Origin: a phage
DNA: 64,000 nt
Reading direction: 5' to 3' (one strand)
Sequence record: OZ470804.1
A program made the translations under genes and the position numbers. Positions 4,741 to 11,579 of this stretch are shown in pieces; position 1 is the stretch's first letter; each line of letters starts with the position of its first letter. The notes beneath the pieces are model-generated. The model did not search any database and was not told the origin of the DNA. It worked only from the letters and a program-made list of their open reading frames with translations.

Positions 4741-5772
<1,032 letters not shown>

Positions 5773-5961
5773 TCAACAACTTTCTAATAAAGTTTTATGA
5801 AGATTTTGCTTAACGACCCGCCTCACATGCCTGTGCTCTTTCTTAATAAAGAGTGACCTCTTCTTGATAGAGCGCCTATTCTTGTAAGTGTTGCTAGGGT
5901 ACTTATCATGAACCGGACAACAGCCACCCGGATTTGTAAACTTGATAATCTCTCTTTTCAC
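5773..5961 (-). CDS. small basic hypothetical protein
   Basis: 62 aa ORF abutting ligase gene; highly basic, low complexity. Confidence 0.3.
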   Translation of the reverse strand: MKREIIKFTNPGGCCPVHDKYPSNTYKNRRSIKKRSLFIKKEHRHVRRVVKQNLHKTLLESC

Positions 5962-7100
5962 TATTCATAATCCCTAATAACTAGCCCAACAGGGAACTGT
6001 AAAGACCCCTTACGAGTCATCTTCTGGAACTGAACCGTTAAAGGCTTCCCGATAAACTCTTCAGGATGCTCAGCAAGATACTGTTTCTTCTCGTGTGTAG
6101 TTTTCCATGAAACATCTACAAAGACGTTAGGAAGAGTCTCTACAACGAACTTGCCATGACCACGCTTATCAGTCTTTACACCAGTCACTTTAAACTCTTC
6201 AGTGTGCATCTTCTTGTGCTTAATCAAGAAGTATGAACGGTGACAACACTCGTAGAAGGAGTCTTCAGAGATTGAGCGGTACATTGCACCTTCAAACTCA
6301 GCTTCAACCCACTTATCATGAGCTTCATCAAACTCTTCCCAAGAATTTACACGACGAGACTTAACAGGAACAACTTTACAGCCATCTCTAAAGTCATTCA
6401 ATGGTGAAGTCTCAATAATATCTCTACGCTCAGGCCACGTCTTAGTGCTGTCACAGATATCATACCAGTAAAACTTGAGTAAATGTCGGTCAGGATTGTC
6501 TTCATTTTTAATCATGGAGACAATATCTTCTAAATCCAACCCATGAGCATAGATTTCACCATCAAATTCATCAACGTCTTTATGGAGCCTCAACATTGCC
6601 ATAATGTCAGGTATTAGTTCAGTAGGAATTTTATAAATAGTGTTCTCACGAGAATATGCTGTAAATACACTGCCAATACTTAAGTGTCTTGAAATTCTAC
6701 AACGTACACCATCCAGTTTTGGTTGAGCATCAGCAGGGAACTTCAAATACTTTGCATGACTAACCTTTGCAGCATCATGAGCAAGCTGTACACCTACCTT
6801 CTCAGTATTCTGTGCAGACTCTTTTGTGTAAGCATAACCTTTACGGTCAACTTGCTTTTTATACTTAGCAGAAACTTCAAAGAGAGCTTGCTGTTCAGCA
6901 TTACGCTCATTCTTTTTACCGATGTTTTTAGGTTCTGCTGTATACTCTTCAAACATCATCTTGCCATTTTCTTTACCGTAGGTTGTAATAACTTTGTCAC
7001 CTACAGCGACACATGACCAGACGTTGAAAGAACCATCTTTATTTTGTTTGTACAGAATTGTCATTTTTAACCTCTGAGTGATACCAAGTGTAACAAGCAT
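5961..7100 (-). CDS. ATP-dependent DNA ligase
   Basis: motif I PKLDGVRC, motif III FDGEIYA, motif IV EGAMYRS, motif V LIKHKK in order; about 100 aa N-terminal extension before motif I. Confidence 0.8.
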   Translation of the reverse strand: MLVTLGITQRLKMTILYKQNKDGSFNVWSCVAVGDKVITTYGKENGKMMFEEYTAEPKNIGKKNERNAEQQALFEVSAKYKKQVDRKGYAYTKESAQNTEKVGVQLAHDAAKVSHAKYLKFPADAQPKLDGVRCRISRHLSIGSVFTAYSRENTIYKIPTELIPDIMAMLRLHKDVDEFDGEIYAHGLDLEDIVSMIKNEDNPDRHLLKFYWYDICDSTKTWPERRDIIETSPLNDFRDGCKVVPVKSRRVNSWEEFDEAHDKWVEAEFEGAMYRSISEDSFYECCHRSYFLIKHKKMHTEEFKVTGVKTDKRGHGKFVVETLPNVFVDVSWKTTHEKKQYLAEHPEEFIGKPLTVQFQKMTRKGSLQFPVGLVIRDYE

Positions 7101-7257
7101 TACATGCGTAAAGCTCTAAGTCATTTTTATCTGGTTTATGGAAACAGTTTGACCCACAACGACATCGGAATAGTTTACCATCAACACGAAGAATGAATGT
7201 TTCAAGCTCACCATCTTCTGTAAGAACTGCGTTCTTAAATTTATCTTCTACAGTCAT
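7039..7257 (-). CDS. zinc-finger protein (hypothetical)
   Basis: CRCGSNC..CNAC cysteine pairs; overlaps ligase 5' end so one of the two starts is probably shorter. Confidence 0.4.
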   Translation of the reverse strand: MTVEDKFKNAVLTEDGELETFILRVDGKLFRCRCGSNCFHKPDKNDLELYACNACYTWYHSEVKNDNSVQTK

Positions 7258-8364: not shown

Positions 8365-8868
8365 TCAACTTAGTTTTGCAAACTCTCCGTGGAGTTTTAC
8401 AGCAGCTTCACAGTAAGCTTTATGGGCTTCTTCTGGTGTGTCAAATAAACCAAGTGATGTCCTTTTACCTCTGCATGTTATAGCTGCCCTCCACTTATTA
8501 CAGTCTTTAAAGTAATGTACACCCTTGTAACCTGATTTATTAGTCGTCTGCTTTATTCTATTTTGTGCATTTCCGTATTTATCAGTCTCCCTAAGATTAG
8601 AAATGTGATTATTACTTCTGTTACCATCAATGTGGTCTATCATCTTAGTGGGTTTGTAACCATGTTCGAACCACCAAACGAGGTGATGAATTTTTATTAC
8701 GACATCTTTGAATTTAAGTACTTTGTAACCGTAAGCATCAGCACCTCCTGCAATCTGCCCAGCTTTAGCTTGTCTATTCCTGTCATACTTGTTGTAGAAG
8801 ACCCCTTTGTCGGGGTCGTAAATAAAATTATCCTTGTAATCTTGAAGTGTTAGTGTACGGCGTACCAT
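8365..8868 (-). CDS. HNH homing endonuclease with AP2 DNA-binding domain
   Basis: HNH motif DHIDGNRSNNHISNLRE plus AP2-like SGYKGVHYF..WRAAI; sits immediately downstream of polymerase gene. Confidence 0.75.
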   Translation of the reverse strand: MVRRTLTLQDYKDNFIYDPDKGVFYNKYDRNRQAKAGQIAGGADAYGYKVLKFKDVVIKIHHLVWWFEHGYKPTKMIDHIDGNRSNNHISNLRETDKYGNAQNRIKQTTNKSGYKGVHYFKDCNKWRAAITCRGKRTSLGLFDTPEEAHKAYCEAAVKLHGEFAKLS

Positions 8869-11579
8869 GTCTTACCTACCTTACCAGTGCCTGTAACAAG
8901 CGTCTTACTCTTTAATCCAAGATTTTTTGATGCTTGACCATACATTCTATCAATAATTTCCTTAACATCAGGTACATCTTTGGTTGGAACCTCTAAAGAG
9001 ACCTCATCGTGGTAACTACAGACCCACCTAGCACCAATAGCGGGCTTCCTACCATTTAGAACTGTAAGCTTGCGCTCTGTTAACTCTCTGTTAGCCAAGT
9101 TAATACCCTCATTCTGCACCTGCGCCTCACTGCCCATAAGTGTGTAATTCAATAACTTATGTGGAGATTTACACCATAACCACGCTCCAGCAACTTTGAT
9201 ATAACCACCTTTGGCAATTGCAGAAGTTTTTCCGAAAACCTCTTCAAGTGCTTTCTTAGTTGCTTTGAAGTCTTCCTCTAACCTGTCCAGAAGCTTTTTA
9301 ATCTTAGGCAGACGCACAAAGTAAGTTTGTTTAGTCAATGCACCTTCTTCCGTAGATGATGCCTTGATAGTTTTTGCAAACTTCTCGTCTCCGGCTCCAA
9401 ATAACAGGGCGTAGATACCATTCTTAGCCTTCTTACGGCCTTTTGTAATCTCGTGAAGAAGTTCCTCATCCTGTGTCTCCCTACAAAGAATAATATCCTC
9501 TTCTTTGTTAAGACCAAAGTAAATACTGTTCAGTGTATGCGCATCAGTCCCTGTATAGACTTCATAGAGGTCATTCTCAGCATCATAACGAAGATACTTG
9601 TCAGTTTCTGGGTTAAGATACTTATCAAGATGCTTACAATAGTATCTACCATCCTCTTGCTTAGTGAACTCTACTGACTCTTTGCCCTCAGTGACCGCTT
9701 TAGTGAAGTCTTCATCACCCATAAAGTTACAAAGAAGAACTAGCTGGGCTGAGTTTTGGTCTACGGAGATGATGTCTGTACCATCTTCACAAGTCCACAC
9801 TTCCCTCATAGGCGCTCCATAGACAGCAGCACCAGACGGTACGTTTACAATGCCATATTGTGTCATACGTCCAGTTGAAGTACCAAACACCATTGCACCA
9901 GCACTAAGGCGACCATCTGGACGAATCTGGTTCAACCAACCTTTTTCATCATCCTTTGAGTTCTCAATAGTTCTGCGTCGGTGCATCAAAGTATAGTACT
10001 TAGCAATCTTCTGCCCAAGCTCACCTTCAATCGTATCATAAGATGATTCAGTAAGTTTTGGTGAAGTACGGATTAAGCAAGGTTCAAGCAAATCTGTGTA
10101 TTTCTTCACAGACCAGTTATGCTCGATGTACTGTACACCTTCGTGTTCAACATAACTCAAACCACACCGCTCAACCATTTCCTGCCACTTAGGATGCTTT
10201 GTAATCATCTTTTTATTGTCTTTGAAACGACAAACTTTGACAGGGCGACCATCTGAGTCTTTCTTGTAATTCCAGTCATCTGGAATCCAACCAACTGATT
10301 TCAAGTAGTCTTTAACAACTGCTACCTGAGTCATGCGAGAAACTTCGAACTCAATTGGTGTATATGGTGCATCAATCAAACCTGTGTAGCGACTTGACTC
10401 AAGTTCAAAGTGGTTAACAACATGACTGTTATAGTACTTCACAGTTTTGACTGTTTTTACTGGCTTCCAGTCTTTGCATTTCTTACCAATCTTTGCGTTC
10501 AACTCATTGCAAATTGCACGAGCATCCTTCATTGCTACAAAACCTTCCTTGTACTCTTCACCAGTTACAGAGTTGGTTGGTGTATAGCAATTTCTCTTTT
10601 CAATGTTAAAAATCTTTGTAGTTGGCTTACCAAATGGCTTGATTTCGTATGTCTGCATCTCACCGTTACGCACCTGTTGACGATACTTTGTCTTAGGATA
10701 CTTGGTAATCCTCTTCAGTCCATCTGCATGACCAAATGTTTCAACATACTCATTCCAAGCTTTTGCAAACTCTTCTCCAGTGACTTTACCTTTGGTCTTA
10801 ATAGTTGGAGGAAGGTGTGGTTCAACCTCTGAAGCAAGCTCATTAGTCAACTTGTCAAGTTCCTTTACATGGAACTCCATAAGCTCTTTATCAGCTTTCC
10901 AACCATTGATAGCTTGTTGACTCATCCAGAAAGATGTTTCTTTAGCTCGCATGTAGGTTTCATAAGTGTCTATGCCACACTTCTTAAGCTTGAGATACTC
11001 ATTATCAAGTGCCCGTTTAGTTTTGGCGTTAATACGGATATCTTCTACAACACGAGTGAAGATTTCTGCATTCCACACACCCCAATGTTCAATCTCTGGT
11101 TTACGAACACCAACACGAGCACCCCATGCAGCCAAGCCATGAGCACCTTTATAACCCTTTGGAGTTGGTCTATCCATCCACTGAACACGAGACTGGATAA
11201 GAGAATCCTGAAAGAAATTACTCCACGGCTTACACTTTGGATTATCAAAGTTCCATAAATCCGGTGCAATGTGATTGAAAACCCACCAGTCATAACCTAG
11301 ACCATTATGAATGCAAAGACGTTTTGCCTTTAACGCAAACTCAATACCTTCACGTAAGCCACCCTTAATGTACTTGGTATACTTGTGACCGAGGATAGGC
11401 TCATCTGTAAAGACCCATACAGGTGGCTCTTCATCGTCAGATTTATAGTCTGCGAAAGCCATTACGTGCACTTTAGTGAACTCAAGGAGTAAACCATCAG
11501 TTTCTGTATCACCAACTAAATGTAAGTTTTTAAAATCTACGTTTTCCATTTTTACTCCCTCTAAAATCATTAACCTCAT
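8850..11579 (-). CDS. DNA polymerase, family A
   Basis: exonuclease motif LVGDTETDG, motif B-like KNGIYALLFGAG, motif C YHDEVSLEV; 909 aa. Confidence 0.9.
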   Translation of the reverse strand: MRLMILEGVKMENVDFKNLHLVGDTETDGLLLEFTKVHVMAFADYKSDDEEPPVWVFTDEPILGHKYTKYIKGGLREGIEFALKAKRLCIHNGLGYDWWVFNHIAPDLWNFDNPKCKPWSNFFQDSLIQSRVQWMDRPTPKGYKGAHGLAAWGARVGVRKPEIEHWGVWNAEIFTRVVEDIRINAKTKRALDNEYLKLKKCGIDTYETYMRAKETSFWMSQQAINGWKADKELMEFHVKELDKLTNELASEVEPHLPPTIKTKGKVTGEEFAKAWNEYVETFGHADGLKRITKYPKTKYRQQVRNGEMQTYEIKPFGKPTTKIFNIEKRNCYTPTNSVTGEEYKEGFVAMKDARAICNELNAKIGKKCKDWKPVKTVKTVKYYNSHVVNHFELESSRYTGLIDAPYTPIEFEVSRMTQVAVVKDYLKSVGWIPDDWNYKKDSDGRPVKVCRFKDNKKMITKHPKWQEMVERCGLSYVEHEGVQYIEHNWSVKKYTDLLEPCLIRTSPKLTESSYDTIEGELGQKIAKYYTLMHRRRTIENSKDDEKGWLNQIRPDGRLSAGAMVFGTSTGRMTQYGIVNVPSGAAVYGAPMREVWTCEDGTDIISVDQNSAQLVLLCNFMGDEDFTKAVTEGKESVEFTKQEDGRYYCKHLDKYLNPETDKYLRYDAENDLYEVYTGTDAHTLNSIYFGLNKEEDIILCRETQDEELLHEITKGRKKAKNGIYALLFGAGDEKFAKTIKASSTEEGALTKQTYFVRLPKIKKLLDRLEEDFKATKKALEEVFGKTSAIAKGGYIKVAGAWLWCKSPHKLLNYTLMGSEAQVQNEGINLANRELTERKLTVLNGRKPAIGARWVCSYHDEVSLEVPTKDVPDVKEIIDRMYGQASKNLGLKSKTLVTGTGKVGKTWYAVH

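Follow-up and report, generated by a model that had tools for sequence, protein, structure and literature searches.

The stretch of DNA analysed here (sequence record OZ470804.1, 64,000 nucleotides, hereafter called the window) is the genome of a Felixounavirus (Felix O1-like) phage. A 2.1-kb query around the ligase gene matched 260 phage records at 80-99% identity, nearly all of them from Felixounavirus or close relatives, with Escherichia, Salmonella, Shigella and Citrobacter as hosts. The ligase gene lies on the minus strand, where its maximal ORF covers positions 5961-7100 (379 aa), and a small cysteine-rich ORF of zinc-finger type overlaps its upstream end. The features of the locus are collected in Table 1.

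Table 1. Features of the ligase locus, with positions in the window and the basis of each assignment.
Feature	Position	Strand	Basis or remark
ATP-dependent DNA ligase CDS, 367 aa	5961..7064	-	Stop codon 5961-5963 included; most likely form
C-terminal OB-fold domain, aa 286-367, motif VI-like QFPVGxxxR	5964..6209	-	PF14743, AF2 beta-strands
Nucleotidyltransferase (adenylation) domain, aa 94-284, motifs I, III, IV, V	6213..6785	-	PF01068 and invariant residues
Motif I KLDGVR	6702..6719	-	K116 is the predicted adenylated lysine; invariant in the alignment
N-terminal domain (NTD), aa 1-85, WGR-fold, AsfvLIG-NTD-type, putative DNA-binding	6810..7064	-	
12 in-frame codons MLVTLGITQRLK from alternative ATG 7100-7098	7065..7100	-	Probably untranslated as part of the ligase
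Shine-Dalgarno GAGG	7071..7074	-	6-nt spacer to ATG 7064-7062; read from the sequence
Cysteine-rich ORF, 72 aa, CxCx3C...Cx2C	7039..7257	-	PHROG 5768 (no assigned function), E 1.3e-40
HNH endonuclease gene	8365-8868	-	PHROG 99, E 1.2e-62
DNA polymerase gene	8850-11579	-	3' end overlapped over 19 nt by the HNH gene

Downstream of the ligase gene there is a spacer of about 620 nt (5344-5960) with few ORFs. It contains degenerate tandem repeats at 5575-5647 (about 3.7 copies of the 20-nt unit CCTTACCATACCGTACTTTA), a near-palindrome at 5680-5718 and, on the minus strand at 5776-5749, a strong sigma-70-like promoter match (TTGACA-16-TATACT, 11/12). Rfam, tandem-repeat and promoter scans of the spacer gave no Rfam family and no terminator-like site. 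On the other side of the locus, the counterpart of the HNH gene in phage RP3 matches Pfam HNH_3 and AP2, and the records of pinkbiff and BPS17W1 show, at the equivalent position, a homing endonuclease and an HNH endonuclease, respectively. Since fjerdesal and Mijalis have no endonuclease there, the HNH gene probably represents a mobile insertion. The plus strand carries 22 clustered tRNA genes at 58065-63555.

The original prediction of an ATP-dependent DNA ligase at 5961-7100 is confirmed by matches in Pfam and PHROG; the strand, left unstated there, is the minus strand. The 379-aa ORF matches PHROG 114 'ATP-dependent DNA ligase' over residues 9-379 (E 4.5e-95), and its first 118 residues alone match the same family (E 4.5e-23). 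Pfam PF01068 (DNA_ligase_A_M) is recognised at residues 106-296 of this ORF with 30.5 bits (cutoff 26.2), and PF14743 (DNA_ligase_OB_2), which is recorded in most relatives of the phage ligase, at residues 316-376 with 25.5 bits, just below its cutoff of 28. The gene is already known, since many of the matching phage records call it 'DNA ligase', and is an ordinary replication-module enzyme of a Felix O1-like phage. A search of the literature found no characterised member of this phage ligase family and no published assay of any ligase belonging to it.

The protein was aligned with 33 relatives, mostly 29-38% identical and 337-437 aa long. In the numbering of the 367-aa protein, the residues K116, D118, G119, R121, D168, G169, E170, E258, G259, K282 and K284 of the adenylation domain are invariant; in the QFPVGxxxR region P358 is invariant, while F357, G360 and R364 are kept in at least 90% of the sequences. 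The AF2 model of the full protein (pLDDT 92.7, pTM 0.83) predicts a C-terminal domain of the beta-barrel type, which superposes on ligase OB domains, and an N-terminal domain confidently packed against the core. The adenylation-domain motifs, together with a C-terminal OB fold with motif VI, place the protein among the ATP-dependent DNA ligases. Motif I (KLDGVR) occupies residues 128-133 of the 379-aa ORF, in agreement with its expected position about 130 residues from the N-terminus, and residues 116-121 of the 367-aa protein. In T7 ligase (1a0i), which has no N-terminal domain, the same profile region, containing motif I, aligns from chain residue 30. For this reason the excess of about 85-100 residues obtained by profile alignment is real, and the N-terminal extension had been correctly sized at about 100 aa. 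Relatives of 430-437 aa (P0033, P0046 and others), from phages of about 143-149 kb such as Escherichia phage 4MG and Klebsiella phages KpS8 and KB57, have about 55 additional residues inserted into the adenylation domain a little past motif III (alignment columns 237-290), a segment that is missing from the Felixounavirus ligase.

The small cysteine-rich ORF overlaps the ligase ORF on the same strand, as noted originally, by 62 nt with respect to the maximal ORF and by 26 nt with respect to a start at 7064; these last 26 nt are read in a different frame. Its own start and the stop of the ORF before it overlap in the sequence ATGA, and this suggests that the small genes form a translationally coupled chain. 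In BPS17W1 the homologue ends in TAA 1 nt before the ligase ATG (GAGGAATAAAATG), at a position where the window has GAGGTTAAAAATG; the 26-nt overlap is therefore explained by the loss of the TAA stop, which adds eight unconserved codons. A search of 5.8 billion proteins returned nine homologues, all at least 74% identical and 42-72 aa long, restricted to Felixounavirus-like phages; none of the nine is fused to a ligase. The ORF is missing upstream of the ligase of Citrobacter phage Mijalis (Mooglevirus). In BPS17W1, which has two paralogous copies, and in RP3, a copy is parted from the ligase by another gene. Judging from this distribution, the cysteine-rich ORF is an independent, lineage-restricted and dispensable gene. 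It was also considered as a partner of the ligase, and a functional link is unsupported, given the variable position, the absence upstream of the Mooglevirus ligase and the lack of fusions.

Several GenBank entries give this ORF the label 'DNA ligase' (pinkbiff_124, fjerdesal_96, BPS17W1_66 and _68, GSP193) in spite of its having no ligase similarity. The mislabelled loci lie at 2530-2748 in L001, at 1504-1722 in L006, and at 1342-1545 and 1870-2061 in L005, and the label appears to be a propagated mis-annotation. In one 62-aa sequence (P0127, from a contig of about 90 kb) the ORF is apparently frameshifted before the CxxC and reads into the ligase-upstream frame (...HVMLAILGITQRLK), with loss of the C-terminal zinc ligands; this would fit a dispensable ORF, or it may be a sequencing error.

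The upstream region of the ligase ORF contains two in-frame ATGs, at 7100 and at 7064. Inspection of the sequence found no Shine-Dalgarno before the first, whereas GAGG precedes the second, and the Mijalis record marks a ribosome-binding site at the corresponding position. A gene of 1104 nt, equivalent to 5961-7064, is annotated in pinkbiff, BPS15Q2 and PK6. In Mijalis a stop codon lies six codons upstream of the same MTILYK ATG, and nucleotide homology between this phage and the window sets in near query position 232-235 (about 7066-7069), a few nucleotides before ATG 7064. Moreover, all 33 of the aligned distant relatives begin 0-12 residues ahead of a conserved L-Y motif. Considering the GAGG, the record annotations, the Mijalis stop and homology limit, and the N-termini of the relatives, we conclude that translation almost certainly starts at ATG 7064, giving a protein of 367 aa, and not at 7100. 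Initiation at 7100, which would yield a 379-aa ligase with 12 extra N-terminal residues, is quite improbable, even if this is the earliest ATG in the ORF, the long form of 1140 nt is annotated in fjerdesal (and in no other record), and the LY motif is preceded by up to about 12 residues in some distant relatives. All five Felixounavirus genomes compared (the window and four other loci) keep this ATG in frame, but the 36 nt at 7065-7100 also encode, in another frame, the conserved CxxC of the zinc-finger ORF, a constraint that would explain its retention; in addition, the stop of the Mooglevirus orthologue falls within the equivalent stretch, and three records against one have the 367-aa form. 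Even less probable, to a degree that makes it hardly credible, is a Lig3-like ZnF-ligase fusion produced by programmed frameshifting from the zinc-finger ORF into the ligase frame. The two ORFs do overlap on the same strand; no stop interrupts the ligase frame in the 17 codons ahead of 7064, and the junction contains an A-run. However, the zinc-finger ORF is absent before the Mijalis ligase; in BPS17W1 it stops 1 nt short of the ATG, and in RP3 another gene lies between it and the ligase; its homologues are all short, unfused proteins, and the simple change from GAGGAATAAAATG to GAGGTTAAAAATG yields the overlap. With the start at 7064, the suggestion that the true start is further downstream holds for a shift of 12 codons and fails for a start near motif I: the 5961-7100 span is the longest ORF, the likely CDS is 5961-7064, and the trimming of 12 residues leaves the extension intact.

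The comparison with phage ligases that had been proposed as a check shows the N-terminal 85 or so residues fused to the core and among the best-conserved parts of the alignment of the 33 relatives. Eight of them are invariant (G30, K46, N47, G49, N52, Q59, A60 and Y77), and L4, G11, W16, G34, T54 and E63 are kept in at least 90% of the sequences; the consensus reads LY..DK.G....W......G....V.HG..GGK.Q.....PKNIGK.NETT.EQQA..EA.SKY.KQ.DKGY. The domain is made up of a four-stranded sheet (aa 2-42), a loop (K46-N47-x-G49-K-K-N52) and a long helix (aa 56-73) with Q59 and A60. The extension had been described as having no recognisable motif. In fact, it carries a strongly conserved signature, KNxGKxNxT...QQA, and matches the solved N-terminal domain of the ASFV ligase (AsfvLIG). 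The signature probably went unseen because Pfam and NCBIfam, run on the full protein, recognise the catalytic core and give no match within residues 1-90. A profile of the NTD alone, searched against 1.84 billion cluster representatives, matched 4,773 proteins at E<=1e-3, a lower bound on the number of ligase-family clusters (clustered at 50% identity), and 3,168 at E<=1e-10. Among the best 150 of the 4,773, the NTD match nearly always starts at residues 1-16, and the proteins are about 345-400 aa long.

On the evidence of these alignments, the extra 90 or so N-terminal residues are a real conserved domain and not a mis-called start or a separate gene. The latter had been the condition set for refuting the extension: translation would start near motif I, the upstream part would be a separate small gene and the ligase a minimal enzyme of the Chlorella-virus or LigE kind. 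Such two-domain ligases do exist, and they align from about residue 90 on. Yet in the window, as in each of the 33 relatives, the frame runs from the NTD into the catalytic domain without a stop codon, and no ATG occurs from residue 38 to motif I; the fusion is kept across the inspected matches from thousands of clusters, the one short NTD-only match that was traced to its contig is a contig-end fragment, and the pTM of 0.83 goes with an NTD confidently packed on the core. We therefore regard a split gene as highly improbable and retain the NTD as part of the ligase. Two kinds of apparent exception were examined and rejected. The 246-aa ligase call in RP3 is not a natural short form, as it sits at the cut end of a linear record. 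The longer relatives are not other NTD fusions and are instead intein carriers: six metagenomic ligases of 590-785 aa (P0133, P0157, P0162, P0183, P0222 and P0261) are interrupted about 10-15 residues past motif I by an intein that contains a LAGLIDADG homing endonuclease (roughly aa 126-485). A further sequence (P0245, 513 aa) keeps only an intein-splicing remnant.

When the single sequence was compared with solved structures, its best relative was AsfvLIG (6IMJ, E 3.2e-5), with an alignment spanning from the NTD through the core. The NTD-only profile matched AsfvLIG residues 60-112 (E 2.5e-6), the runner-up being 2ra8 (E 0.088), which we take to be a WGR protein. The whole-family profile matched AsfvLIG in one stretch, residues 60-402, with an E-value of 1.6e-50, as compared to 5e-40 for the next ligase and about 1e-36 for the Chlorella virus ligase. 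A Foldseek search with the AF2 model gave a consistent picture: closed AsfvLIG:DNA complexes ranked at the top, with TM 0.79-0.81 over about 410 columns, and two-domain or helical-DBD ligases reached only 0.56-0.63. In the HMMER alignment K85-N86-L-G88-K89-K90-N91 and Q98-A99 of AsfvLIG correspond to K46-N47-I-G49-K50-K51-N52 and Q59-A60 of the phage protein, and these phage residues are invariant across the family except for K50 and K51. The residues of AsfvLIG that contact DNA (K89-K90-N91 and Q98) thus align with K50-K51-N52 and Q59, of which N52 and Q59 are invariant. As in AsfvLIG, a mixed alpha/beta NTD, with a flat sheet on one long helix, takes the place of the helical DNA-binding domain. 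Taken together, the sequence profiles and the predicted fold indicate that the phage NTD is homologous to the NTD of AsfvLIG and of WGR fold.

The two enzymes also differ in several respects. AsfvLIG (NP419L; PDB 6IMJ/6IMK/6IML/6IMN) is only about 20% identical to the phage ligase and about 50 residues longer; its NTD, about 120 residues in length, includes additional elements at the N-terminus, and the first 24 or so residues of the phage NTD do not align with it at the sequence level. AsfvLIG serves base-excision repair in a eukaryotic nucleocytoplasmic virus, whereas the phage ligase belongs to the replication module of a tailed phage. In motif I, AsfvLIG has Asn153 (KRNG) where the phage enzyme has the canonical Asp118 (KLDG), so that error-prone behaviour, low fidelity being documented for AsfvLIG only, should not be assumed for the phage enzyme. 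Asn153 is one of four unusual residues of AsfvLIG at the nick site. Of the other three, Leu211 corresponds to Leu178 and is common to both enzymes. Leu402 and Gln403 fall where the profile alignment stops (at Leu402); the sequence there is PQFP in the family and LQFP in the window protein, which leaves the register ambiguous.

The fold of the phage NTD matches the WGR domains of PARP1 and PARP3. At the level of Pfam, WGR (PF05406) was the only family matched by more than one of 26 NTD sequences, with weak, sub-threshold matches in 4 of the 26 (best E 0.015), and the NTD of the window had no match to it at E<=10. PARP1/2/3 and bacterial WGR domains have the W-G-R motif, whereas in the phage family the signature Trp and Arg are not conserved: the triad position reads H/Y-G-x, where only the Gly (G30) is invariant and the flanking positions are Y/H and K/x. 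The phage NTD therefore has the WGR fold without the W-G-R triad and without membership of Pfam WGR. Bacterial ATP-dependent ligases of NT-OB_2-WGR arrangement have been noted in a review (PMC7470946). In the literature searched, no paper linked the AsfvLIG NTD to WGR domains or to phage ligases; structure-classification databases may record such a link. It seems rather probable, on balance, that the AsfvLIG NTD, published as a unique and novel fold, is a divergent WGR-fold domain shared with a tailed-phage ligase family of at least 4,773 clusters, of which the ASFV ligase would be a member or sister. The WGR-like nature of this NTD and its wide occurrence in phage ligases together make up one modest new point.

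Among the other known ligases, the nearest relatives of the core after AsfvLIG are the minimal enzymes (Chlorella virus PBCV-1; LigE, 4D05, 6GDR and 8U6X), with E-values of 5e-40 to 1e-34 for the family profile. These share with the phage ligase an OB domain of the OB_2 type and align only from about profile position 88-95 on; instead of an N-terminal DNA-binding domain, they rely on a latch or on embedded basic residues (PMC7470946). The ligases of T4, T7, Rhizobium phage P10VF and Prochlorococcus marinus have the same catalytic motifs as the phage ligase. According to PMC7470946 and PMC12121391, the N-terminal DNA-binding domain of the enzymes of T4, P. marinus (Pmar-Lig) and P10VF is all-helical; it is unrelated to the alpha/beta NTD of the phage protein.

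The structural work on AsfvLIG gives an indication of what the NTD may do. There the domain sits where human ligase 1 has its helical DNA-binding domain; the long helix alpha3 follows the major groove and bonds to the broken strand through Gln98 and Ser105, and the beta7-alpha3 loop (Lys89, Lys90, Asn91) fits the template strand (PMC6344480). Replacement of this loop lowers the affinity, and removal of the NTD abolishes both DNA binding and ligation (PMC6344480). By analogy, the NTD of the phage ligase would replace the helical DNA-binding domain of larger ligases, with the KNxGKxN loop and the long QQA helix contacting the duplex beside the nick, and the NTD, adenylation and OB domains together would encircle the nicked DNA. 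K116 in KLDGVR would be the adenylated lysine, and removal of the NTD would be expected to leave an enzyme with poor DNA binding and no ligation. The original idea of an added DNA-binding module is thus borne out as regards a conserved domain homologous to the AsfvLIG NTD, and the DNA binding itself is probable by analogy. It is unlikely that the domain is mainly a nick or 5'-end sensor, like the WGR domains of the PARPs, or a protein-interaction module of the replisome, rather than a surrogate of the generic duplex clamp. The resemblance to PARP1 and PARP3, whose WGR domains read DNA breaks, would speak for such a role; on the other hand, the family-invariant residues correspond to backbone and groove contacts of AsfvLIG, away from the nick itself, and the signature Trp and Arg are not conserved. 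A clamp of the AsfvLIG kind remains the preferred function of the NTD. The DNA polymerase gene lies on the same strand, about 1.8 kb upstream of the ligase gene; this arrangement fits a role in sealing Okazaki fragments and the nicks of repair and recombination during phage replication, which we consider its likely task. Overall, the gene at 5961-7064 very probably encodes the phage's three-domain ligase, composed of a WGR-fold DNA-binding NTD acting as an AsfvLIG-like clamp, a nucleotidyltransferase domain and an OB domain, with its start at ATG 7064 and with the upstream cysteine-rich ORF as an independent gene.

These results settle the annotation of the window: the CDS is 5961-7064 on the minus strand, its long N-terminus is a domain and the zinc-finger ORF is a separate gene. 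An architecture solved only in the ASFV ligase is the standard one in a very large family of phage ligases, which tempers the claims that the ASFV domain, proposed also as a virus-specific drug target, has no relatives; the understanding of ligase chemistry is unchanged. If the proposed relationship is true, the ASFV ligase is no orphan, and there is an evolutionary link between the ligases of phages and those of nucleocytoplasmic viruses. Many tractable phage enzymes would then be available for studying DNA encirclement of the AsfvLIG kind. The ASFV structures provide a mechanistic template for thousands of unannotated ligase N-termini, and the phage enzymes, easily expressed, could show how a WGR-type domain substitutes for a helical DNA-binding domain.
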